Positions 1,738-34,021 of a DNA stretch of 47,241 bases are shown piece by piece. The DNA is taken from positions 1-47,241 of the forward strand of contig MHSA01000001.1 in assembly GCA_001821135.1 (NCBI GenBank), written 5' to 3'. Position 1 is the stretch's first letter. Each line of letters opens with the position of its first letter. The DNA is from Candidatus Taylorbacteria bacterium RIFCSPLOWO2_01_FULL_48_100. GTDB taxonomy: Bacteria; Patescibacteriota; Minisyncoccia; Phycocordibacterales; UBA10002. Under the pieces are notes generated by a model. The model was not told the origin of the DNA, searched no databases, and worked only from the letters and a program-made list of their open reading frames with translations. A program made the position numbers and the translations under genes.

Positions 1738-2368
1738 GGAAATCCTCGGAAAACTGTTCGGTTCGGAATCTAGGGTTAAAATACTGCGCCTGTTTTTGTT
1801 TAATCAGGGCGCGGCTTTTTGTGCTGAAGAGGTTGCGGAGCGGAGCAAAGCAAATCTCTATGTGGTGAAGCATGAGCTTAAACTTTTGCGGAAAGTCGGC
1901 TTTATCAAGCGCAAGATGTGGAAAAAGCCAGTCACAAAGAAGCGGCGCTCTGCGCTTGCCGACGGCTGGACGCTGGACGAGCGGTTCGCCTACCTTTCTC
2001 CGATGCAGAAACTCCTTCTGGACACCGTATTTATGAGTGATGCGGAAATCTATAGACGGTTTAGCGGGGCGGGTAAAATGAAACTCGTCATCGTCGCGGG
2101 TGTGTTTATACAAAACCTGGAAAGTCGCCTTGACCTTTTGATTGCCGGCGACAACTTAAAGCGGCATGTTGTTGAGCATGTAGTAAAAGGACTTGAAGCA
2201 GAAATCGGGAAAGAGTTGACTTATGCCGCATTTGATATGCAGGAATTGCAGTATCGCGTCGGTATGTATGACCGCCTGCTCCGCGATGTGATGGAAAGCC
2301 CTCACCGCACGCTTTTGGACAAAGTCGGCTTTGAGAAGAAGTTTATTGAAGCGAATAGCAAGAAATAA
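1736..2368 (+). CDS. Winged-helix DNA-binding protein (ArsR/MarR-like N-terminal wHTH); the C-terminal domain has a weak nucleotidyltransferase-like pattern
   Basis: 210 aa. The N-terminus SRVKILRLFLFN...FCAEEVAERSKANLYVVKHELKLLRKVGFIKRK is wHTH-like. The C-terminal AGVF...SRLDLLIAGD weakly resembles the minimal NTase motif. Confidence 0.7.
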   Translation: MEILGKLFGSESRVKILRLFLFNQGAAFCAEEVAERSKANLYVVKHELKLLRKVGFIKRKMWKKPVTKKRRSALADGWTLDERFAYLSPMQKLLLDTVFMSDAEIYRRFSGAGKMKLVIVAGVFIQNLESRLDLLIAGDNLKRHVVEHVVKGLEAEIGKELTYAAFDMQELQYRVGMYDRLLRDVMESPHRTLLDKVGFEKKFIEANSKK

Positions 2369-2407
2369 TAGTCGCTCGGAATGCTGCTTTTGCAGAACCG
2401 GAAAAAT

Positions 2408-2518
2408 CCCCCTCTCGCCCTTTTCTAAAGGGGGAGTACCCGAGCGAAGCGAGGGGGAGGGGGTCGTTTCTGTCGGTACACAACCCCTCCGCCTCGCGGT
2501 TAGGTTAAGGGCAGGAGG
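2408..2518. repeat. GC-rich modular palindromic repeat, copy A (module X then module Y)
   Basis: cctctcgcccttttctaaagggggagtacccgagcgaagcgagggggaggggg ... cccctccgcctcgcgg..ttaggttaagggcaggagg. It is near-identical to 21991-22116, and its modules are shared with 3975-4064. Confidence 0.8.
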
Positions 2519-2530
2519 TGAAAAGAATTA

Positions 2531-2561
2531 AAAACGGCTCAGCGTGCGCTGAGCCGTTTTT
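2531..2561. terminator. Intrinsic terminator hairpin (conserved cggctcagcg...cgctgagccg family), copy 1
   Basis: aaaacggctcagcgtgcgctgagccgttttt: a GC stem with an A-tract before it and a T-tract after it. The same hairpin occurs at 4915, 29717 and 33249. Confidence 0.8.
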
Positions 2562-2588
2562 AGCCCTAGAAATAAGGGGTTTTCGGGC

Positions 2589-2617
2589 TTGACTTCTGTA
2601 ATACAGTATGCTATACT
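2589..2617 (+). promoter_or_regulatory. Near-consensus sigma70-type promoter
   Basis: TTGACT (2589-2594), a 17-nt spacer, then TATACT (2612-2617). A paralogous block is at 33311-33339. Confidence 0.55.
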
Positions 2618-2728
2618 GGAAAGTAGAAAAATAAAGTTCCTTGAGTGAAGTTCTTCACAGCGTTGATTGAGATGTGTGTCTCGCAGCTGTGAGGAAAAAA
2701 TGTGAGGAAAACAATCAACCCAAAAATA

Positions 2729-3688
2729 TCATGAATATTTGTACATTTTTCAAGCGTTGGTAACACTTTTCTTTAATTCTCGTAATTCCAGTTTGGTCCG
2801 TTGAATGTAGTCTTCAAGACAGGCAAAGGGCGATAAACCGTTCAATGACTGATGCGGTCGCAGGTGGTTGTAGTAGCGAACGATGGCGTAGAGAATCCGT
2901 CTTCGTTCTTCCCGCGAGATGAAGTGATGTTTCCGGAGCAGTCCTTTAATTGTCTTAATCACTCGTTCTGCTTTTCCGTTTGTCTGTGGACGGTATGGCC
3001 TTGTGAACTGCTGTGGAATGGAGTGGTGTGCGCACAGATGCTTAAACGCTCCCTTAAACTCTTTACCGTTGTCCGAATAGATGCACTCAATGGAGAACGG
3101 AAGCATAGTCAGCGCTTCATCAAGCACAATCGCTGCGCTGTAACTCGTTTGGTCGGGTAGGATGTCGGCAAACAGCGTGCGTGAGAAATCGTCAATGAAT
3201 ACATACAGATATTCCTTCGGTGTCGTGATGGCCTCGCCGGGAACGAGCGGCATAACTGACGAGTCAGTATGTACCATTTCGCCTGGGTGTTTCTTTACAT
3301 ATCGGTTTTCCCGTAATTCTCGCTTGAGTAGTTTCTTGCGTATTTTGCGCTCCGTCTTTTCTAGTTTCTTGAGCCCGTATTCAATAGTTCTGTACCGTAG
3401 GTTTTTGGACGAATAGTTTCCGAATACATCCAACTTGGCTTTATGGAACACTTCGTAGAGCGTCTTTCTAGATACGCGGTAATATCTTGCTAAATCCGAT
3501 ACACGATCTCCTCCCCGCCAGCGCCTATACGCTTCCTGTCGCTGGTACGGCAACAATTTGGTATTCTTATGCATACAAAAGGTGCGTTAACGATTAATGG
3601 TTTGAACACCGAAATCGTAGCGCACCTTTTGCCTTTTCAAAGAACTAATGTGTTACTAACCCGTAGTATATGTACAGAATATTCTGAC
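2729..3688 (-). mobile_element. IS481-family insertion sequence (about 960 bp)
   Basis: A single HTH plus rve (DDE) transposase ORF. Imperfect terminal inverted repeats: tcatgaatatttgtacat (2729-2746) versus atgtacagaatattctga (3670-3688), about 17 matches with 2 indels. A 5'UTR hairpin pairs aaaggtgcg with cgcaccttt (3578-3632). No clear target-site duplication was seen. Confidence 0.55.
2750..3574 (-). CDS. IS481-family transposase (integrase core / rve domain)
   Basis: 274 aa. It has an N-terminal HTH (DLARYYRVSRKTLYEVF) and a DDE core (HTD...FIDDFSR...YSDNGKEF...RPYRPQTNGKAERVIKTIK...YNHLRPHQSL). Confidence 0.9.
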   Translation of the reverse strand: MHKNTKLLPYQRQEAYRRWRGGDRVSDLARYYRVSRKTLYEVFHKAKLDVFGNYSSKNLRYRTIEYGLKKLEKTERKIRKKLLKRELRENRYVKKHPGEMVHTDSSVMPLVPGEAITTPKEYLYVFIDDFSRTLFADILPDQTSYSAAIVLDEALTMLPFSIECIYSDNGKEFKGAFKHLCAHHSIPQQFTRPYRPQTNGKAERVIKTIKGLLRKHHFISREERRRILYAIVRYYNHLRPHQSLNGLSPFACLEDYIQRTKLELRELKKSVTNA

Positions 3689-3966
3689 AGAAAACGACTG
3701 TAGTGGTAAAGTCCTGTTTACAGAAGTCGTGTGCCCGTCCTGCGGGACTGGAACACCCGCATGGGTGAGCCAGTACGGATACGGCAAGTGTGTCCACGGG
3801 CACGATGTTGTGCCTGATGGAAAAGGGGGGATCACCGTATCCCACATACCAAGTAGCAGGGAAAACTCATCCCTGCACCCAAACCATAGGCACTTTTCTT
3901 GTCAGTAAGGAGTAAGGAAAAGTCCAGGTTTGGACCCTCGCTGGAAACAGCGAGGGTTTTTGTTTG
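3689..3966 (+). ncRNA. Candidate structured non-coding RNA of unknown class (3' part of the promoter/terminator-bracketed locus 2589-3966)
   Basis: There is no credible ORF. Nested helices are visible: 3694-3702/3719-3730; 3731-3738/3796-3803 enclosing 3739-3746/3756-3764; and 3810-3820/3884-3893 enclosing 3828-3832/3839-3843 and 3856-3862/3870-3876. The locus ends in a GAAA-tetraloop terminator. Its ends are paralogous to 33286-33450. Confidence 0.4.
3935..3966 (+). terminator. Intrinsic terminator (GAAA tetraloop)
   Basis: ccctcgctg-gaaa-cagcgaggg followed by tttttgtttg. A near-identical copy is at 33419-33450. Confidence 0.75.
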
Positions 3967-3974
3967 TAAACATT

Positions 3975-4064
3975 CCCCGCCTCGCGGACTCGGCACCCCC
4001 TTCCAAGGGGGGATTTTAATTCTCCCCTTGAGGGGAGTACTCCGCCGATAGGCGGAGGGAGGGA
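3975..4064. repeat. GC-rich modular palindromic repeat, copy C (modules in permuted order: Y then X-like)
   Basis: ccccgcctcgcggactcggcaccccct matches the second half of copy B. ccccttgaggggagtactccgccgataggcggagggaggg resembles module X. Confidence 0.65.
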
Positions 4065-4112
4065 TGTATTCTTTTTATCCACACCCTGCCCACACCTTTT
4101 CCACAAGGCCAT

Positions 4113-4120
4113 TGTATAAT
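4113..4120 (+). promoter_or_regulatory. Extended -10 promoter element (TGTATAAT) upstream of the membrane protein gene
   Basis: tgtataat lies 83 nt upstream of the ATG at 4203. This rests on the motif only. Confidence 0.3.
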
Positions 4121-4202
4121 AGAAGTATTACCCAAGCGTAATGAACAGGCGGTTTGGTCTTCCGTTTGTTTCAGTTATTATTTATTAATTTAATATATTT
4201 TT

Positions 4203-4889
4203 ATGTTAGACACATGGAGTTCGGTTTTGCAGGGGGCTTTTTCAGACCTCTGGTTTGGCATTGCAAGCTTTTTGCCACAACTCATTCTCGCGGTTGTTAT
4301 TTTCGTAATTGGCTGGGCAGTAGGGAGCTTGCTCGGCAGAGTCGTGTCGCATATTGTTGGCGCGCTCAAGGTTGATTCGCTTTTGGAAAGCGCGCATGTA
4401 GACAATGTCTTGAAGCGTGGCGGGTTCAGCTTGGATTCGGGGCGATTCGTCGGCGGGTTGATAGAGTGGTTCGTCATTGTCGTATTCCTCGTTGCCTCGC
4501 TTGAGGTGCTCGGGTTGACGCAGGTTAACGCGTTTCTTCAGCAAGTGGTGCTTCTCTACTTGCCTCGCGTGATTGTCGCCGTCTTAATTCTCTTGGTCGC
4601 AGTCGTTATTGCGTCTGCGATGCAGCGGGTGGTGGTCGGCGCGGCAAAGGCGGCTGAAATTCGCTCAGCGAATTTCCTCGGGAGCGTTACGAAGTGGTCT
4701 ATTTGGATTTTCGCCGTGCTTATGGCGCTATTCCAACTCGGAATTGCGGCGCCCTTTGTGCAGACGCTCTTTACTGGGGTTGTCGTGGCGCTCTCCATCG
4801 GGTTCGGCCTTGCGTTTGGGCTAGGCGGGCAGGATGCGGCGGCGGGCTTCCTCGCGAAAGTGCGCTCGGAAATCAAGAATCACAACTAA
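4203..4889 (+). CDS. Polytopic membrane protein with repeated conserved-TM-helix units (MscS-N-terminal-like)
   Basis: 228 aa with several hydrophobic helices. There are repeated units of the type FLPQLILAVVIFVIGWAVGSLLGRVV and YLPRVIVAVLILLVAVVIASAMQRVV. Confidence 0.75.
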   Translation: MLDTWSSVLQGAFSDLWFGIASFLPQLILAVVIFVIGWAVGSLLGRVVSHIVGALKVDSLLESAHVDNVLKRGGFSLDSGRFVGGLIEWFVIVVFLVASLEVLGLTQVNAFLQQVVLLYLPRVIVAVLILLVAVVIASAMQRVVVGAAKAAEIRSANFLGSVTKWSIWIFAVLMALFQLGIAAPFVQTLFTGVVVALSIGFGLAFGLGGQDAAAGFLAKVRSEIKNHN

Positions 4890-4914: not shown

Positions 4915-4949
4915 AAAAAACGGCTCAGCGCGCGCTGAGCCGTTTTTTT
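4915..4949. terminator. Bidirectional intrinsic terminator (conserved hairpin family), copy 2
   Basis: aaaaaacggctcagcgcgcgctgagccgttttttt lies between the convergent genes 4203-4889 (+) and rpmB (-). Confidence 0.85.
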
Positions 4950-5253: not shown

Positions 5254-5862
5254 ATGGAGCTTGATATTATTTTCTCTATTCTTATTTTGATAATGTCCGT
5301 CGTGGTGCATGAGGTGTCGCACGGGCTTGTCGCCAACTACCTCGGCGACCCAACGGCGCGCCTTGCGGGGCGGCTCTCATTCAACCCGCTCAGACATCTT
5401 GATATTTTCGGCTCAATACTCGTGCCTCTGCTTCTTATTATGTCAAAAGCCGGCATCATTTTCGGATGGGCGAAGCCGGTGCCGGTAAACACATATAATT
5501 TGCGCTGGAAGTACGGAGAAGCACTCGTGTCGGGCGCGGGCCCTGCGTCCAACATTCTTATCGCGCTTGTTTTCGGTTTGCTTTTGCGGTTTTTCGGAAG
5601 CGCCTTGCCGATGTCATTTGTCGCTATTTCGGCGTCCGTCGTGTTTATAAACATCCTCCTCGCGCTTTTCAATCTTGTGCCGATTCCGCCTTTAGACGGC
5701 TCAAAGTTATTGTTTGCGTTTCTACCTTCTGGGTCGGCGTTCGCAGAATTTTTAGAGCGCTACTCACTTTTTATCTTACTCGCGTTCATTTTCTTCTTGT
5801 GGCAGTTTCTCGCACCAGTCGTCGGATTTCTCTTCCGCATTTTTACTGGAATAGGGGCGTAG
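5254..5862 (+). CDS. Site-2 protease family (peptidase M50) membrane metalloprotease
   Basis: 202 aa. It has an HExxH motif ([11 protein letters not shown]) in the first TM helix, a later [11 protein letters not shown] motif, and is polytopic. Confidence 0.85.
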
Positions 5863-5911
5863 GAGTGTGAGGGTTTGCATTTTTGCTTGGATTGTATTAT
5901 ATTTTGCCGAC

Positions 5912-6325
5912 ATGTCTACGATAAATCAGCTTATTCGGCGCGGTCGGAAAGAGCGCGTTCGCAAGAACAAAACGCCCGCGCTTACCAAAAGCTTCAATGT
6001 GCTCCGGAATAAGCCGGTGTTTTTCGATTCGCCTTTTAAGCGCGGTGTGTGCACAAAGGTTACGACCAAGACGCCACGCAAGCCGAACTCCGCTATACGC
6101 AAAATCGCGCGCGTTCGGCTTACAAACGGTATGGAAATTACCGCCTATATTCCGGGAATTGGGCACACCCTGCAAGAGCACTCGGTAGTCCTCGTGCGTG
6201 GTGGGCGTGTGAAGGATGTAAACTTGCGTTATACGATTGTGCGCGGCAAGCTTGACGCCGTGGGTGTGGAGAATCGCCGTAAAGGAAGGAGCCAATACGG
6301 CGTGAAAAAGCCGAAGACGGCTTAA
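5912..6325 (+). CDS. rpsL: 30S ribosomal protein S12
   Basis: The start was chosen at [13 protein letters not shown], inside ORF 5867-6325. Motifs: KRGVCTKV...[19 protein letters not shown]...LVRGGRVKD. Confidence 0.95.
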
Positions 6326-6331
6326 CGAAGT

Positions 6332-6802
6332 ATGAGACGAAAAATTAAAAACAAAAAAGAGTTGTCGCCAGACGCACAGTATAATTCGCAGAAAGTTGCG
6401 AAGATGGTGAATTATGTAATGGAGCGCGGCAAAAAGGAGGCGGCGCGCAAAATCGTGTACGGCGCGTTCAAGGAAGTGAAAGAAAAAACAAAAAACGACC
6501 ATCCGCTTGAAGTGTTTGAGACAGCGCTGAAAAATGTAACGCCACTTATGGAGGTGCGCTCGCGCCGCGTCGGCGGAGCGAATTACCAAGTGCCAGTGGA
6601 GGTGAGGGCTGAGCGCCGCCAGCTCTTGTCTATGAATTGGATTATTGACGCGGCGCGTGGGAAAAAAGGAAAGCCGATGCATATAAAACTTGCAGACGAA
6701 ATTATTGCGGCGAGCAAGAACGAAGGCGAGGCGGTGAAGAAGCGCGAGAATGTGCACAAAATGGCAGAAGCAAACAAAGCATTTGCGCATTTTGCATGGT
6801 AA
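6332..6802 (+). CDS. rpsG: 30S ribosomal protein S7
   Basis: 156 aa. Motifs: VEVRSRRVGGANYQVPVEVR...KKRENVHKMAEANKAFAHF. Confidence 0.95.
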   Translation: MRRKIKNKKELSPDAQYNSQKVAKMVNYVMERGKKEAARKIVYGAFKEVKEKTKNDHPLEVFETALKNVTPLMEVRSRRVGGANYQVPVEVRAERRQLLSMNWIIDAARGKKGKPMHIKLADEIIAASKNEGEAVKKRENVHKMAEANKAFAHFAW

Positions 6803-6836
6803 GTTGTATGCAGAATCGTTGCAGAAAATAAATACA

Positions 6837-7013
6837 ATGTTAAGTCCATTGGAATATAGTATAGTTGCCATTCTTGCTTTTGTAAGTGTTGCTGTAGTTT
6901 TTCTTTCTTGGGATAAACAGGAGCGTTCGGTCTTAGGTTTTTTGATTTGGTACGGTATTGGTTTCTTGATAATCACCCTTATTTTTTGGTTAACTCGCTA
7001 TATTTTGGGTTAG
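6837..7013 (+). CDS. Small two-TM membrane protein (hypothetical)
   Basis: The internal ATG of ORF 6750-7013 was used, because the upstream part overlaps rpsG. The 58-aa product has two hydrophobic helices. No homology was recognised. Confidence 0.4.
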   Translation: MLSPLEYSIVAILAFVSVAVVFLSWDKQERSVLGFLIWYGIGFLIITLIFWLTRYILG

Positions 7014-7033
7014 TTTTGTGTTACGCTGTCGGT

Positions 7034-7294
7034 ATGAAGATTTTGACTTACAGGGTGCGGATTGAACCTGATGAGGGGGGGCGAGGATACATCGCCTATT
7101 TCCCTGCGCTTCCCGGTTGTCATACGCAAGGACATACTCTTGAAGAAACGATTGCGGCTGCACGAGAAGTGCTTGTCGGGTTTTTGCGTGTGATGAAAAG
7201 GCAAGGCAAGACGATTCCAGTTGAACGAATAAAAAAGTCTCCACTGTCTTTTGGTTTGTCAGTACGCCTATCTCGCAATTCTGTTTTAGCTTAA
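7034..7294 (+). CDS. hicB: HicB-family antitoxin (UPF0150)
   Basis: Start at MKILTYRVRIEPDEGG.GYIAYFPALPGCHTQGHTLEETIAAAREVL, a typical HicB N-terminal domain. hicA follows directly. Confidence 0.8.
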   Translation: MKILTYRVRIEPDEGGRGYIAYFPALPGCHTQGHTLEETIAAAREVLVGFLRVMKRQGKTIPVERIKKSPLSFGLSVRLSRNSVLA

Positions 7295-7300
7295 TGAGCT

Positions 7301-7525
7301 ATGGCGCGGCTTCCAAATCTAAAGACGAAGAAGTTGCTCGCGGTTTTGAAACGGGCGGGTTTTGTGCCATATGACCAAGAAGGAAGTCACTTGTACCTCC
7401 GACATTCACTCACAAAAATAACAACATCGGTTCCTATGCACAGCGGAGAAATCAACCGCAGCTTAATGAAACTTATTATAAAACAAGCAGGACTCTCAGA
7501 GAACGAATTCAGAAAATATCTTTGA
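7301..7525 (+). CDS. hicA: HicA-family mRNA interferase toxin
   Basis: 74 aa. KKLLAVLKRAGFV...QEGSHLYLRH...TTSVPMHSGEI matches the HicA/YcfA pattern. Confidence 0.85.
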   Translation: MARLPNLKTKKLLAVLKRAGFVPYDQEGSHLYLRHSLTKITTSVPMHSGEINRSLMKLIIKQAGLSENEFRKYL

Positions 7526-7584
7526 TTTTGCATTTTTGGTGGTTCTACGGTATTCTCAATTGACGCTTCTGCGTTTTTTAGTTT

Positions 7585-9732
7585 ATGAATCGCGACTATC
7601 CACTTGAACGAGTTCGCAACTTCGGCATTATTGCGCATATTGACGCTGGTAAGACAACCACCAGCGAGCGCGTGCTTTTCTATACGGGAATGACTCACAA
7701 AATCGGCGAGGTGCACGAAGGCGATACCGTAACCGACTGGATGGAACAGGAGCGCGAGCGCGGCATTACGATTACCGCCGCCGCCATTACTTGTTTCTGG
7801 ACGCCGTCGTATGTTGCGAACAAGATCGACAAAGAAAAGAAAATCCGTTTTAATGTTATTGATACACCCGGGCATATTGACTTTACTGCAGAGGTAAAGC
7901 GTAGCTTGCGCGTATTGGACGGCGCGGTCGTCGTGTTTGACGGGGTTGCTGGCGTTGAGCCGCAGAGCGAAACCAACTGGCGCTATGCCGACGAAGGCAA
8001 GGTGCCGCGCATCTGTTTTATTAACAAACTAGACCGCATGGGCGCGTCTTTTGAAAAATCCTACGCTTCCATTCTTGACCGACTGAACAAGCACGCGGTA
8101 CGGATGCAAATTCCGATTGGGCTTGAAGAAAAGTTTGAGGGCGTTATAGACCTCCTCAAAATGAAGGCGTATTACTTTGAGGGCGAGAAGGGGATTGAGG
8201 TGATTGAAAAAGAAATCCCCGCAGAAGAGCTTGAAGATGCGAAAAAGTATAGACATGAATTAGTGGAACGGATTGTTGAAAATGACGATGCCCAAATGAG
8301 TGAGTATTTGGAAGGAAAAGAAATATCAGTAGACGCTCTTAAAAAGACACTTCGCAAAGCGGTAATTGCAAACAAGATTTTCCCAGTGCTTACCGGCTCC
8401 GCGCTCAAAAACAAAGGAGTACAACTAGTGCTTGATGCTGTGGTGGATTATCTTCCATCGCCTTTGGATATTCCGGCGATTTCGGCAATCAATCCAGAAA
8501 CCAATGAACCGGTTGAACGGCACTCATCCGACGAAGAGCCGTTTTCCGCGCTCGTGTTTAAGTTGCAGACAGACCCGTTTGTAGGTCAGCTAGCATTTTT
8601 CCGCGTGTATTCTGGGGCGGTGGAAGCGGGCTCGTATGTGTACAATTCTACAACCGGGAGCCGCGAGCGATTGTCGCGCATTGTGCGCTTGCAAGCGGAT
8701 AAGCGTGAAGAAGTGAAAAAGGTTTTTGCGGGAGAAATTGCCGCGGCGGTGGGGCTCAAAGATGCGAAGACCTCGCACACCCTGTGCGACGAGAAAAGCC
8801 CCGTCGTGCTTGAGCCGATTAAGTTTGCCGACCCGGTTATTTCTATGCGCATTGAGCCGAAGACAAAAGCCGACCAAGAGAAAATGGGTATGTCGCTCAA
8901 GCGCCTCTCGGACGAAGACCCGACTTTCAGAATTAAGAGCGATATGGAAACGGGCGAAACCGTCATTATGGGTATGGGTGAGTTGCAACTTGAAATTATG
9001 GTGGATAGAATGAAGCGCGAGTTTAGCGTGGAAGCGACTGTTGGCAAGCCGCAGGTTGCGTACAAAGAAACTATTCAAGGCGAGGCGGAAGTTGAAAACA
9101 AGTACATAAGGCAGACGGGCGGGCGCGGCCAGTACGGACATGTGAAGATTACCGTAAGACCAATGAAGCCGCTTGTTGAGGGTGCAAAAATTCCGAAAAA
9201 CACGAAGCGGTATGATGACTTTGAGTTCATCAATTCCATCAAAGGCGGCATCATTCCGCAGGAATATATTCCTGCGGTAGAAAAAGGGTTGCGCGAGGGA
9301 ATGGAGCGCGGCGTGGTCGCCGGCTTCCGACTCGTAAACATTTCGTGCGAGCTCTCGTACGGCTCGTATCACGAAGTGGACTCGTCAGAAATTGCGTTTA
9401 AGATTGCTGCGTCCCAAGCGATACAAGAGGCATGCCGCAAAGCTAGACCGGTGCTCCTTGAGCCGATTATGAAAGTGGAAGTGGTAACACCCGAAAAGTT
9501 TATGGGGGATGTGACGGGGCACCTGAACTCCAAGCGCGGCGAAGTGCAGAATGTATTTGACCGCGGTATGAGCAAGGTGGTGGACGCGAAAGTCCCGCTC
9601 GCGGAAATGTTCGGCTACATCACGACGCTTCGCTCAATGTCCGAAGGCCGCGCCTCGTTCAATATGGAGTTCTCGCATTATGCCGCGGTGCCGCCGAATG
9701 TTGCTATTGGTATTATTGAGGCGAGGAAATAA
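7585..9732 (+). CDS. fusA: Translation elongation factor G
   Basis: 715 aa. Motifs: RNFGIIAHIDAGKTTTSERVLFYTG, DTPGHIDFT, and all five EF-G domains. Confidence 0.97.
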   Translation: MNRDYPLERVRNFGIIAHIDAGKTTTSERVLFYTGMTHKIGEVHEGDTVTDWMEQERERGITITAAAITCFWTPSYVANKIDKEKKIRFNVIDTPGHIDFTAEVKRSLRVLDGAVVVFDGVAGVEPQSETNWRYADEGKVPRICFINKLDRMGASFEKSYASILDRLNKHAVRMQIPIGLEEKFEGVIDLLKMKAYYFEGEKGIEVIEKEIPAEELEDAKKYRHELVERIVENDDAQMSEYLEGKEISVDALKKTLRKAVIANKIFPVLTGSALKNKGVQLVLDAVVDYLPSPLDIPAISAINPETNEPVERHSSDEEPFSALVFKLQTDPFVGQLAFFRVYSGAVEAGSYVYNSTTGSRERLSRIVRLQADKREEVKKVFAGEIAAAVGLKDAKTSHTLCDEKSPVVLEPIKFADPVISMRIEPKTKADQEKMGMSLKRLSDEDPTFRIKSDMETGETVIMGMGELQLEIMVDRMKREFSVEATVGKPQVAYKETIQGEAEVENKYIRQTGGRGQYGHVKITVRPMKPLVEGAKIPKNTKRYDDFEFINSIKGGIIPQEYIPAVEKGLREGMERGVVAGFRLVNISCELSYGSYHEVDSSEIAFKIAASQAIQEACRKARPVLLEPIMKVEVVTPEKFMGDVTGHLNSKRGEVQNVFDRGMSKVVDAKVPLAEMFGYITTLRSMSEGRASFNMEFSHYAAVPPNVAIGIIEARK

Positions 9733-20716: not shown

Positions 20717-21984
20717 CTTCTTTTTTACAAAAAGCAAAGCTTGTCTTTACCGATAAGGTGCTCCGCAAGCGCATTCTGTTTGTTGCCGGCGCGTTTGTGC
20801 TTTTCCGACTTCTTGCTTCCGTGCCAATTCCTGGGATTGACGAAACACGCCTCGCGCGCCTTCTGGAGGGCAATCAATTTCTTGGGCTTTTCAATATTTT
20901 CTCCGGCGGCGGGCTTGATAACCTCTCTATTGTTATGTTGGGAGTCGGCCCGTACATCACGGCCTCCATCATTATGCAGCTCTTGACGATGGTATTTCCA
21001 AAGCTCAAAGCACTATATCACGAAGAAGGGGAGCTCGGCAGAAAACGGTTTGCGCAATACTCGCGCCTTTTAACGCTTCCGCTCGCGCTAATTTCCAGTT
21101 TCGGATTTTTAGTTCTGCTTTCGCGGCAAGGCGTGCTCGGAGACCTGTCTTCTTTTGCAACACTTATAAATATGTCGCTGGTGGTTGCCGGCGCTTTCCT
21201 GCTTATGTGGATTGGCGAGCTCGCGACTGAGTTCGGCATCGGAAGCGGCGTATCGCTCATCATTTTTGCGGGCATTGTATCAGGAATCCCGAAAGGAATC
21301 ACAGCGCTTGCACTCTCTTTTGACCCATCGCAGATTCCGCTCTATGTAGCGTTTCTTGTTGCGGCGCTCGCAGTGATTTACGGTGTCGTGGTGGTGAGTG
21401 AGGCGGAACGACCTGTGCCGATAACTTACGCGAAGCGCGTGCGGGGGATGAAGCAATATGGCGGCGTATCTACCTACTTGCCCCTCCGCGTCAATCAGGC
21501 GGGTGTGATTCCGATTATCTTTGCGCTCTCCATTCTTTTGTTCCCGCAAATGATTTTGAGTTTTACGGCGAATGTAAGCAATCCGCTTGTGCAGAAAATT
21601 GCATCAACGCTTCTCGCCCTTTTCTCAAATGGATGGTTTTATTCCTCTTTGTACTTCCTGCTTGTGCTTGTCTTTACCTATTTTTATACCGCAGTTACCT
21701 TTGAGCCGGAATCGGTTGCGACCAATTTGCAAAAAAACGGAGCGTTCGTGCCGGGAGTTCGCCCAGGGCGCGCAACCGCAGAATATCTTTCTAAAATCGT
21801 AACGCGCATTACGCTTGTCGGAGCGGTATTCCTCGCGCTTGTTGCCGTGCTCCCTCTCGCGATGCAAGGAGTTACCGGAAACACCAACCTCGCTATCGGC
21901 GGCACCGCGCTCCTCATTGTCGTCTCCGTCGTGCTTGATTTGGTAAAGAAAATAGACGCGCAGGTCGCGATGCGAGAGTACTAG
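20713..21984 (+). CDS. secY: Preprotein translocase subunit SecY
   Basis: 423 aa with 10 TM helices. Motifs: GIDE...FSGGGLDNLSIVMLGVGPYITASIIMQLL, GELATEFGIGSGVSLIIFAGI. The ATGA start overlaps the rplO stop. Confidence 0.96.
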   Translation: MTSFLQKAKLVFTDKVLRKRILFVAGAFVLFRLLASVPIPGIDETRLARLLEGNQFLGLFNIFSGGGLDNLSIVMLGVGPYITASIIMQLLTMVFPKLKALYHEEGELGRKRFAQYSRLLTLPLALISSFGFLVLLSRQGVLGDLSSFATLINMSLVVAGAFLLMWIGELATEFGIGSGVSLIIFAGIVSGIPKGITALALSFDPSQIPLYVAFLVAALAVIYGVVVVSEAERPVPITYAKRVRGMKQYGGVSTYLPLRVNQAGVIPIIFALSILLFPQMILSFTANVSNPLVQKIASTLLALFSNGWFYSSLYFLLVLVFTYFYTAVTFEPESVATNLQKNGAFVPGVRPGRATAEYLSKIVTRITLVGAVFLALVAVLPLAMQGVTGNTNLAIGGTALLIVVSVVLDLVKKIDAQVAMREY

Positions 21985-21990
21985 AATCTT

Positions 21991-22116
21991 TCCTCTCGCC
22001 CTTTTCCAAAGGGGGAGTACCCGAGCGAAGCGAGGGGGAGGGGGTGATTTTACAGTTCAAATAAACCCCTCCGCCTCGCGGACTCGGCACCTCCCCTTAG
22101 GTTAAGGGCAGGAGGT
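21991..22116. repeat. GC-rich modular palindromic repeat, copy B (X then Y, full length)
   Basis: It aligns with 2408-2518 over both modules and has an extra gactcggcacctcccc segment that it shares with copy C. Confidence 0.8.
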
Positions 22117-22126
22117 TAATACATAA

Positions 22127-28848: not shown

Positions 28849-29292
28849 ATGTCCCTCGTGGAAAACAAAAAAGCGCGATTCAATTATGAATTTATGCGCA
28901 CGCTGGAGGCGGGCATAGAACTTTTCGGTCTTGAAGTGAAGTCGTTACGCCAAAAACAGGGCGCGTTGGACGGCGCGTATGTGATTGCGCGCGGAGGCGA
29001 GGCGTTCCTCGTCGGCGCGTACATTCCGCAGTATCAGCCGAAAAATACGCCAAAGGGTTACGACCCAAGGCGCAATCGCAAACTTCTACTCACGAAAAAG
29101 GAGATTGCGGAGCTTGCTGGGAACGAACTCAAGAATGGTTTGACAATAATACCTGTGTCAGTGTATAATAAAGGGAGGAAGATTAAGGTGGAAATTACGG
29201 TTGCGCGCGGCAAGAAGAAGTATGACAAGCGCGAAACGCTAAAGCGACGCGATGCGGAGCGAGAAATGCAGAGAACCTTGAAAAACCAATAG
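28849..29292 (+). CDS. smpB: SsrA-binding protein SmpB
   Basis: Start at MSLVENKKARFNYEF. Motifs: GIELFGLEVKSLR, RKLLL.KKEI. tmRNA follows directly. Confidence 0.94.
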   Translation: MSLVENKKARFNYEFMRTLEAGIELFGLEVKSLRQKQGALDGAYVIARGGEAFLVGAYIPQYQPKNTPKGYDPRRNRKLLLTKKEIAELAGNELKNGLTIIPVSVYNKGRKIKVEITVARGKKKYDKRETLKRRDAEREMQRTLKNQ

Positions 29293-29327: not shown

Positions 29328-29709
29328 GGGGATGCAAGGCATAGACAAAAGCGTACATCTCGCGTGTGCAAGGTGGAGCTCCAACAACTCCTTAAACGGT
29401 TGGAAACCTAACTGCAAAAACAGTTGCTAAAGCAGTCGCTTCTCCATTTTTTGGAGTAAACGATTTTGCTTTCGCTCGCGCTTCGGCGTAAGCGACATTC
29501 GCCGTCCAACGCCTCAGCGGACGGACCGAGTGTTGTATCAGGGGCTAGAAATCTTGAGCGTCTCGGCAGGATTTTGAAAATAAGAGAATCGTGTATAAAG
29601 TATTTTGTTCGTTTATAGCTTCATACATTAAAAAAACAAAACGGCACTAAACCTTGTAGATTCACGCGCGACGAACTTTTGCACCCGAGTTCAATTCTCG
29701 GCATCTCCA
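29328..29709 (+). ncRNA. ssrA: tmRNA (SsrA)
   Basis: The 5' GGGGAUG pairs with the 3' CAUCUCC plus discriminator A, including a G3:U70 pair. The T arm is ccgag-ttcaatt-ctcgg. An internal tag frame ends ...GVNDFAFARASA-taa (29453-29491). The gene lies directly downstream of smpB. CCA is not encoded. Confidence 0.85.
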
Positions 29710-29716
29710 TTCGTAA

Positions 29717-29751
29717 TAAAAAACGGCTCAACGCGCGCTGAGCCGTTTTTT
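29717..29751. terminator. Intrinsic terminator (conserved hairpin family), copy 3
   Basis: aaaaaacggctcaacgcgcgctgagccgtttttt lies right after the tmRNA. Confidence 0.8.
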
Positions 29752-29908
29752 AATTGTAACTAGAAAAAAAGTTGTCCACACTTTTGCGGGAGATTTTGTT
29801 GTGTAATGCGCGCGGACGCGCGATAATAAACATGCCTATGCAATTTTTCTGCGGAGGTCGGCGGAAAAATTGTACGCTTTGAAAGTTTTGTAATATTTTT
29901 TCACTCCT

Positions 29909-32847: not shown

Positions 32848-33192
32848 ATGAGCCGAGTTAAAAAAGCAACCAATGCGTTGAAGTTTCGCAAAAAGCTTTT
32901 GGGGAAGACCAAGGGCTACCGCCACGACCGTTCCAAGAAGGAGCGCGCCGCGTGGGAAGCATATGTGCACGCAGGTAAGTATGCGTTTGCGCACCGCAAA
33001 GACAAGAAAAATGATTTCCGCACGCTCTGGAACATACGTCTCAACGCGGCGCTCCGCGTGAACGGCACGACATATAGCAAGTTTATCGGCGCGATGAAAA
33101 AGAAAAATATCTTACTCAACCGCAAGATGCTCTCAGAATTGGCGAATGAACACCCTGACTCATTCAAGCGTGTTGTGATGCAGGTGATGTAA
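32848..33192 (+). CDS. rplT: 50S ribosomal protein L20
   Basis: 114 aa. Motifs: MSRVKKATNALKFRKKLL..TKGYR, AFAHRKDKKNDFR.LWN.RLNAA. Confidence 0.95.
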   Translation: MSRVKKATNALKFRKKLLGKTKGYRHDRSKKERAAWEAYVHAGKYAFAHRKDKKNDFRTLWNIRLNAALRVNGTTYSKFIGAMKKKNILLNRKMLSELANEHPDSFKRVVMQVM

Positions 33193-33248: not shown

Positions 33249-33282
33249 GAAAAAACGGCTCAGCGCGCGTTGAGCCGTTTTT
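33249..33282. terminator. Intrinsic terminator (conserved hairpin family), copy 4
   Basis: aaaaaaacggctcagcgcgcgttgagccgttttt lies after rplT. It is followed by the same gccctagaaataagggg block as copy 1. Confidence 0.8.
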
Positions 33283-33310
33283 GAGCCCTAGAAATAAGGG
33301 GTTTTTGGGC

Positions 33311-33339
33311 CTGACTTCTATATTAGGGTATGCTACACT
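33311..33339 (+). promoter_or_regulatory. Promoter-like block paralogous to 2589-2617
   Basis: CTGACT, a 17-nt spacer, then TACACT. The flanking sequence is about 85% identical to the 2562-2620 block. Confidence 0.35.
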
Positions 33340-33345
33340 ATGACC

Positions 33346-33450
33346 ATAAATTAGTAGAAACACTTCGGGAGTTGTATAGAGAGGGCAAACTCGGATTCTA
33401 GGATTCAAAAGATCCAAACCCTCGCTGGAAACGGCGAGGGTTTTTGTTTG
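33346..33450 (+). ncRNA. Candidate small RNA (about 100 nt), short paralog of the 2589-3966 locus
   Basis: It is bracketed by the paralogous promoter block and a near-identical GAAA-tetraloop terminator (33419-33450). It contains a C(UUCG)G hairpin and a ggat...atcc hairpin. There is no ORF. Confidence 0.35.
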
Positions 33451-33511
33451 TTCCAAATCTCCTCCTCAGATGAGGAGGGGAGGAAAGAAAAAGATTATCT
33501 TACGTATTCAA

Positions 33512-34021
33512 CTAGCTTCCGCACTGGATTGTAGTCGTATTTGCGGACGCCTCTTTGGCGATGCCGCTGGAATCAACGCACCACGCTTTTGTTTTATCGC
33601 GGAGGGGGACGGACACGGCCCACAGTGTCGTTGAGTTGGCGCAGGTCGCAACCGAGCCGCCGCCAGATGCGCTTTGCGCCGCAGTAAGTTGTGCCGCAAC
33701 GCGCGAGTCCGTAAAGACACTGCCGGCGGTTGTACAACTTGTGCCGGTGTTTGGACCGAAACTTGAATTGTTATCGTCAAAATACAGCGCTGCTTGCGAA
33801 CGCAAGTTTGATAGGTTTGCCTTTACTGTGACATCCCCACTCTTATCTCGCGCGCCGTTTAGAGAGGCGAGCACGACTGAAGTTAAAATACCGATAATAG
33901 CGATGACAACCAGTAACTCAATAAGCGTAAATCCCGTTAGAAGTAAGGAATCTTTGATTCCTGCCGATTTGCTAGAAGCAAATCGGACTTCTAACGGGAT
34001 AAATCCTTTTTTGTATTGCAT
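33512..34021 (-). CDS. Type IV pilin / pseudopilin-like prepilin with an unusually long leader
   Basis: Start at MQYKKGF. It has the class III signal ...TG|FTLIELLVVIAIIGILTSVVLASL and a C-terminal Cys pair. 75 aa of the listed ORF upstream of this start were rejected. Confidence 0.85.
   Translation of the reverse strand: MQYKKGFIPLEVRFASSKSAGIKDSLLLTGFTLIELLVVIAIIGILTSVVLASLNGARDKSGDVTVKANLSNLRSQAALYFDDNNSSFGPNTGTSCTTAGSVFTDSRVAAQLTAAQSASGGGSVATCANSTTLWAVSVPLRDKTKAWCVDSSGIAKEASANTTTIQCGS
33931..34000. mobile_element. 70-bp miniature inverted-repeat element (TIR ATCCCGTTAGAAG family), copy 2, inside the prepilin leader
   Basis: Perfect 14-bp TIRs: atcccgttagaagt (33931-33944) and acttctaacgggat (33987-34000). 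AA flanks both ends. Internal hairpins pair ggaatc with gattcc and ccgatttgc with gcaaatcgg. Removing the 70 bp plus one AA restores MQYKKGFTLIE. Confidence 0.6.

Follow-up and report, generated by a model that had tools for sequence, protein, structure and literature searches.

A strain-specific intergenic unit with a strongly folded payload, split by an IS481-like element in Candidatus Taylorbacteria and tentatively read as an orphan small RNA gene

We analyzed an intergenic unit on contig MHSA01000001.1 (assembly GCA_001821135.1) of Candidatus Taylorbacteria bacterium RIFCSPLOWO2_01_FULL_48_100; the whole stretch of 47,241 nt is referred to below as the window. The unit sits between a conserved gene for a 210-amino-acid (aa) protein (1736-2368), which comes after rplJ-rplL, and an MscS-like gene (4203-4889). 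It consists of a promoter-like site and a payload, here named X, that ends in a terminator with a GAAA loop, and X is split by an insertion sequence (IS) resembling IS481. Without the IS, X is about 399 nt long (2624-2739 joined to 3684-3966). Among named organisms, the flanking 210-aa protein has its closest relatives in metagenome-assembled genomes (MAGs) of Parcubacteria, Taylorbacteria and Zambryskibacteria; two NCBI MAGs and many metagenome assemblies from aquifers contain the identical sequence. The features of the unit are listed in window coordinates.

2529-2562, unstranded: terminator-1 (AAAAACGGCTCAGCGnGCGCTGAGCCGTTTTT), a perfect 16-bp palindromic hairpin, usable in both directions
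2563-2617, plus strand: promoter module (CCCTAGAAATAAGGGGTTTT), with a -35 hexamer TTGACT at 2589-2594 and a TG-extended -10 hexamer TATACT at 2612-2617
2624-2739, plus strand: X 5' part, a long hairpin (2637-2709) and then an A-rich linker ending in ATGAATATT; folding z score -3.24
2733-2739, unstranded: left target-site duplication GAATATT, read from the sequence, with its boundary set by other IS copies
2740-3676, minus strand: IS481-like element, 937 bp, with TGTACA...TGTACA ends and imperfect terminal inverted repeats
2750-3574, minus strand: transposase gene, 274 aa, with helix-turn-helix and rve/rve_3 DDE domains (Pfam), a single open reading frame (ORF) without programmed frameshift
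3677-3683, unstranded: right target-site duplication GAATATT, with its boundary set by other IS copies
3684-3931, plus strand: X 3' part, a nested multi-helix domain closed by 3684-3693/3895-3905; z = -5.26
3932-3966, plus strand: terminator-2 (CCCTCGCTGGAAACRGCGAGGG), a 12-bp stem with a GAAA loop (3932-3959), then a T-run

The limits of the IS were derived from other copies. We found 17 related IS copies (about 72% nucleotide identity) that start with TGTACAT, end with ATGTACA and measure 935-937 bp, and contigs made up of the IS only are 937-939 bp long. Because the related copies have the same ends and length, the IS was placed at 2740-3676; the sequence-only reading had put it at 2729-3688, which the shared TGTACA ends and the GAATATT duplication correct. 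The target duplications of the related copies are different short A/T-rich sequences, including one of 6 bp (ATATGC, locus L040). By comparison with the other copies, a 937-bp IS is shown to have inserted into a pre-existing unit and to have duplicated GAATATT. The flanks of the 17 related copies, which lie in other contexts, have nothing in common with X, and the structured part is therefore not cargo of the IS.

That an IS481 element interrupts the locus, as had been read from the letters, was upheld, for an IS481-like element, by the transposase domains and by NCBIfam, where the best match was the IS481 model NF033577 with 165.2 bits (E = 2e-48), below the curated cut-off of 224; IS3 scored 72 bits. 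Like members of the IS481 family (e.g. IS481 of Bordetella), the element has one DDE ORF without frameshift, a length of about 1 kb, inverted repeats starting with TGT and a short target duplication (7 bp here). Unlike curated IS481, it falls short of the model cut-off and belongs to a compact 937-bp lineage. Transposases at 78-89% identity make up more than 100 clusters, most of them on contigs of 935-1200 nt, many of exactly 937-940 nt. The identical transposase is known from one genomic context only, and the IS is single-copy and fixed in the genome. IS481 elements can disrupt or re-drive adjacent genes.

The plus strand of 3684-3931 folds more stably than any of 200 shuffles, and with the terminator included z falls to -7.2. 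This segment ranks 10th among 392 strand-specific 240-nt windows across the 47 kb (mean z -0.66, standard deviation 1.73), and most of the windows that outrank it hold repeated hairpin elements and terminators. The helices of the segment are nested; their closing stems span 73, 84 and 222 nt, and two sub-domains are closed by GUGCC stems (3731-3738/3796-3803 and 3810-3820/3884-3893). In the minimum free energy (MFE) fold, only 3 of the 77 pairs are G-U (3.9%), compared with 12.3 +/- 3.1% in shuffles (0 of 200 as low), 13.4% in coding windows (minimum 6.2%) and 11.6% in the transfer-messenger RNA (tmRNA) of the window. By its predicted structure, the X 3' segment folds unlike the coding sequence of this genome and unlike a plain row of palindromes.

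These values bear out the earlier description of the locus as highly structured. Six helices had been named from a reading by eye of the 3689-3934 part, and five are present in the MFE fold of 3684-3931: the two GUGCC stems, 3694-3699/3725-3730, 3828-3832/3839-3843 and 3856-3862/3870-3876. The sixth, 3739-3746/3756-3764, survives only as a perfect alternative to the MFE pairing, which forms ACUGG/CCAGU and CACCC/GGGUG in its place. Upstream of the IS, the hairpins noticed before are real as well, and in the MFE fold they form one helix of 11 bp (2651-2661/2686-2696). In the long 5' hairpin, each of the two GAGGAA motifs is base-paired. We also observed a tandem UGUGAGGAAAA repeat at 2689-2711 in the X 5' part; directly behind its first copy comes a minimal start-stop (AUG UGA).

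Both elements said to enclose the locus, a promoter and a GAAA-tetraloop terminator, were recovered at 2589-2617 and 3932-3966, and the modules that carry them recur in the window. Terminator-1 occurs four times in 47 kb (2529-2562, 4915-4948, 29718-29751 behind the tmRNA gene, and 33250-33283). In one variant strain (L006), the first of these copies has partly compensating changes. The last copy opens a sister cassette with the same order of modules.

33251-33455, plus strand: sister cassette, made up of terminator-1, a promoter module, a different payload of about 75 nt without an ORF, and terminator-2

Here the promoter module copy (33279-33339) is 87% identical over 61 nt to 2557-2617, with hexamers weakened to CTGACT/TACACT, below the pass mark of the promoter scan. 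The terminator-2 copy (33418-33451) is 97% identical over 34 nt. The cassette is placed downstream of a 114-aa ORF at 32848-33192, and its payload folds with z = -3.5. Rfam gave nothing above threshold for 33251-33455. The sister cassette may be a small RNA (sRNA) gene.

We then compared the site with related loci in which the 210-aa protein is 63-84% identical. Where other cargo is absent, the MscS-like gene begins 108-150 nt after the 210-aa gene, whose stop codon leads directly into a promoter, TTATCCACA...GGTATAAT, and a conserved leader; in the window, both appear only from about 4075. No X-like sequence was found at the syntenic site in seven such loci, and a syntenic orthologue of X is absent in L009, L010, L011, L015 and L018. 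In other relatives the same slot is occupied, by PemK toxin cargo (L017, L019) or by a 657-aa gene (L012). In coordinates of these loci, the cargo lies at 1927-2609 (L017), 1009-1404 (L019) and 5621-7594 (L012), and in one related slot the PemK-type toxin gene is followed by a gene for a 42-aa hydrophobic peptide. On this comparison, the slot between the 210-aa and MscS-like genes is a hypervariable cargo hotspot in related Parcubacteria. The stretch from 2369 to about 4074 (about 1.7 kb) is, by the same alignment of loci, strain-specific accessory DNA, since the relatives have a short spacer or other cargo at that site.

2369-2528, unstranded: left insert edge, beginning directly past the 210-aa stop codon, with a GC-rich hairpin repeat at about 2405-2520
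3967-4074, unstranded: right insert edge, a scrambled form of the GC-rich hairpin repeat, after which (from about 4075) come the ancestral promoter and leader of the MscS-like gene

The insert is a mosaic of seven pieces (the IS counted separately), in the order GC-rich hairpin repeat, palindromic terminator, promoter module, X with the IS inside, terminator-2 and scrambled GC-rich repeat. In the variant strain L006, the 2369-2528 stretch is swapped for other sequence. A 95% identical copy of the GC-rich repeat lies at 21992-22050, and the z scores of 240-nt windows over the repeat copies are about -4.6 to -7. The repeat (about 135 nt) was seen at 2405-2520, 21986-22125 and 3973-4065, directly behind stop codons, such as that of a 423-aa ORF ending at 21984.

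The reading that we favor, tentatively, is that X was an orphan accessory gene of the sRNA type, about 400 nt long, in a strain-specific unit that the IS inactivated. We preferred an RNA because the insertion is real, the payload is strain-specific, the bracket is reused, the signal lies at the level of nucleic acid and coding support is weak, and we infer that the product of X was RNA rather than protein. The unit would have been assembled from promoter and terminator modules reused in the genome and then dropped into the hypervariable intergenic slot. Its original transcript would have run from about 2624 to the GAAA-loop terminator (3932-3966), comprising the 5' hairpin (2637-2709), an A/U-rich linker, a closed domain of about 222 nt (3684-3905), and a 3' hairpin with the terminator. 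By entering the linker, the IS would have parted the promoter and the 5' hairpin from the structured domain. The promoter would now read into the IS, antisense to the transposase gene, and transcription of the 3' domain could come about only through read-through or a weak promoter at the junction, CTGACA-17-TAAAGT (3684-3712). To judge from the arrangement in the contigs, the unit is now probably inactive and dispensable.

Like orphan or strain-specific bacterial sRNA genes, X has a sigma-70-like promoter, a structured body and a Rho-independent terminator at a variable intergenic site near cargo of the toxin-antitoxin type. Unlike typical sRNAs, it is about 400 nt long with a nested multi-domain fold, is split by an IS and yielded no homologue in our searches.

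Several observations weigh against this reading and have to be set beside it. The first concerns the fold itself: the minus strand of 3684-3931 folds as well (z = -3.69), which leaves function at the RNA level, and the strand, unproven by folding. The helices are nearly pure Watson-Crick, so both strands fold, and the strand call rests mainly on the orientation of promoter and terminator. The second concerns the promoter. Its description as near-consensus stands insofar as a TG-extended match, TTGACT-17-TATACT, scores 10/12, but such matches occur in the window at chance frequency (9, against 8.4 +/- 2.9 in shuffles), and the support for the promoter is positional only.

The third concerns relatives. 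A scan of 2350-4200 against Rfam 15, with the IS in place, returned no family at gathering thresholds, in agreement with the earlier failure to fit known RNA families by eye; at E <= 10, it gave terminator-driven or chance matches only, of at most 21 bits. DNA similarity to X was not detected in phage or plasmid records (BLAST), in the related loci, or elsewhere in the 47-kb window. An exact search of metagenome and genome collections did not find the IS-free junction ATATCATGAATATTCTGACAGAAAAC. Scans of genome, viral and metagenome collections for peptide patterns of X gave no homologue, and the power of these scans is weak. The metagenome scan missed JGI contigs known to carry X (L004, L007, L023) and the genome-contig scan missed both NCBI MAGs that carry it, so the negatives from these collections are weak evidence. 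In sum, no DNA, peptide-pattern or protein search produced a homologue of X from which covariation or selection could be read.

Finally, the IS is present in every one of about 40 loci of the same population that were retrieved by way of three exact flanking proteins, with zero base changes in X or the IS; differences were confined to the upstream repeat and terminator-1 in a single variant strain, and so to sequence outside X. X and the IS being invariant across contigs, covariation and substitution-pattern (dN/dS) tests have no basis here. IS-free alleles, which the sequence-only reading had contemplated, turned up neither among these loci nor in the junction search. Since only the IS-split state was found, X appears to be dispensable, which suggests that its role is not needed now. 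The proposal of a novel large non-coding RNA (ncRNA) class was not supported, as no conservation was seen in the seven related loci or in the collections as far as these were run. On the material collected, X cannot define a new RNA class; we make no class call because there is one representative, without relatives or variation, split by the IS in every contig found.

The alternative that survives best, though we consider it unlikely, is that X is non-functional hairpin debris in a hotspot, with inverted repeats arising at the DNA level (REP/BIME-like or by template switching) and modules that are generic intergenic repeats. The composition of the insert agrees with this: the GC-rich element lies on both sides, terminator-1 is present four times and the promoter/terminator-2 module twice, and the left flank varies between strains. 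A promoter match at chance frequency, near-pure Watson-Crick helices that score on both strands, an IS-split state that is the sole one found, and the failure to find conservation of X also fit debris. The elements that flank X resemble REP/BIME in being GC-rich perfect hairpins behind stop codons that are reused as terminators. X itself, however, occurs once in 47 kb, unlike REP-type repeats, and its helices are nested under long-range closing stems instead of forming tandem hairpins or a row of plain palindromes. Its position, too, is exact, with a promoter-like site on one side and a strong terminator on the other.

A still less probable alternative is that the IS split a small protein gene, encoding a 77-aa ORFan behind a structured 5' untranslated region of about 107 nt, with codons 1-3 separated from the rest. 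The transposase had been called the only credible ORF of the locus; this is correct for the sequence as it stands, but excision of the IS in silico creates an ATG-started frame of 77 codons.

2731-2739 joined to 3684-3908, plus strand: hypothetical ORF, ATG AAT ATT followed by codons 4-77 and TAA at 3906-3908, after in-silico excision of the IS

This frame (MNILTENDCSGKVLFTEVVCPSCGTGTPAWVSQYGYGKCVHGHDVVPDGKGGITVSHIPSSRENSSLHPNHRHFSCQ) requires removal of the IS and of one GAATATT copy, reads ATG AAT ATT / CTG across the junction and ends 24 nt before the terminator. Three of its properties count for a protein and so against an RNA product: the restored frame itself; the rarity of an open frame of at least 97 codons, which is seen in 3.7% of dinucleotide shuffles (p ~0.04); and the start context AAAAATATCATG, which is like the A/T-rich starts of the genome, where a Shine-Dalgarno motif precedes 5 of 34 genes only. 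The frame also has the best codon score of the six, the peptide is Cys/His-rich with a CPxCG knuckle, and the same slot in relatives holds genes for small accessory proteins. That best score, however, is -0.05 bits per codon, which ranks at the 4th percentile among segments of real genes and at the 94th among wrong-frame ones, and two minus-strand frames are likewise open over 80-103 codons. The folding statistics and the depletion of G-U pairs also set the segment apart from the coding sequence of the window.

Searches with the 77-aa peptide did not yield a true protein homologue. HMMER against 1.84 billion representatives gave 17 matches, all scored over several repeats, with a best single alignment of 31.6 bits; the matches that we looked at belong to repeat proteins, namely propellers of the SBBP type and a single protein with VVPDGKGG repeats. 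Neither Pfam (E <= 10) nor NCBIfam gave a match for the peptide. We rejected an SBBP beta-propeller (PF06739) identity, since the peptide has no Pfam match, whereas the match proteins P0121 and P0129 fit SBBP. A concatenated three-frame word search of 5.8 billion clusters found no match, and Foldseek against the PDB found no fold match. AlphaFold confidence (pLDDT) was 69.5 for the peptide and 72.2 for a minus-strand control ORF; as the control scored as well, the prediction does not discriminate for coding.

It is very improbable that X is a diverged member of a known family hidden by the IS (RNase P, SRP, 6S, a riboswitch, a group I or II intron, HEARO, GOLLD, ROOL, OLE or raiA). A length of about 400 nt and a nested architecture do recall large ncRNAs, but the best weak match, RT-3, reached 20.4 bits against a gathering threshold of 40.5 and uses the upstream terminator hairpin, and the same Rfam scan detected the tmRNA of the window normally. 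The motif GGAAAAGUCC at 3916-3925 is one that we take to recall the P4 motif of RNase P, and the motif order is wrong for RNase P. X shares with GOLLD, ROOL, HEARO, OLE and raiA its size, its complex nested structure and an uncultivated lineage as its source; those families have many representatives with covariation, whereas X stands alone and fits none of their models. Least probable of all is that the structured domain belongs to the mobile element, an RNA with a guide or regulatory role which the IS carries or targets: X does border the IS at its transposase-proximal end, and the two are read from opposite strands, but an RNA carried by the IS was rejected, since the 937-bp unit ends at TGTACA and excludes X, as the lengths of the IS-only contigs confirm, and the related copies have unrelated flanks and different target duplications.

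Some further observations were made around the locus and elsewhere in the window. The leader of the MscS-like gene is conserved: TTATCCACA, about 35 nt, GGTATAAT, then GCATTAC..GGTCGTA..AAACAGGCGG-loop-CCGTTTGTTTTT. It lies at 4075-4202 in the window and at 2870-3004 (L009), 1868-1980 (L011), 7600-7733 (L012), 2651-2788 (L017) and 1828-1940 (L018) in the relatives. The AAACAGGCGG-loop-CCGTTTGTTTTT element is a terminator-like hairpin in the 5' untranslated region of this gene and could be an attenuator or a small cis-regulator; one compensatory pair only is seen in six sequences. A motif like a DnaA box (TTATCCACA, or in variant form, e.g. TGTCCACA) is found repeatedly just 5' of promoters in the lineage (4075-4083 and 29776-29784 in the window; 5581-5590 and 7601-7610 in L012) and looks like a lineage-specific promoter element or the binding site of a regulator. 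At 29140-29169, a perfect 12/12 sigma-70 consensus (TTGACA-18-TATAAT) precedes both the tmRNA gene (29328-29712) and a short basic ORF. Inside or 5' of a minus-strand ORF for a pilin-like protein lies an imperfect inverted repeat of 25 nt (33920-34011), and the 240-nt window around it has the most extreme folding z of the whole window, about -10 to -11 on both strands.

The event that split X is in itself ordinary, an IS entering a strain-specific accessory unit; its orphan payload is unusually well folded. What is gained is, first, the boundaries and target duplication of a compact 937-bp IS481-like lineage with more than 100 clusters at 78-89% in public metagenomes, and second, a hypervariable cargo slot beside the L10/L12 ribosomal genes of these Parcubacteria. 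A bolder proposal, that X is an undescribed structured ncRNA of about 400 nt on a reusable promoter/terminator cassette with varied payloads that enters accessory hotspots, with the IS as a natural knock-out, strikes us as quite doubtful. If the orphan sRNA-type gene that we favor is a real RNA, it would be among very few large structured ncRNAs from the Candidate Phyla Radiation (Patescibacteria), and the paired cassettes would suggest modular movement of small transcription units in a reduced genome.

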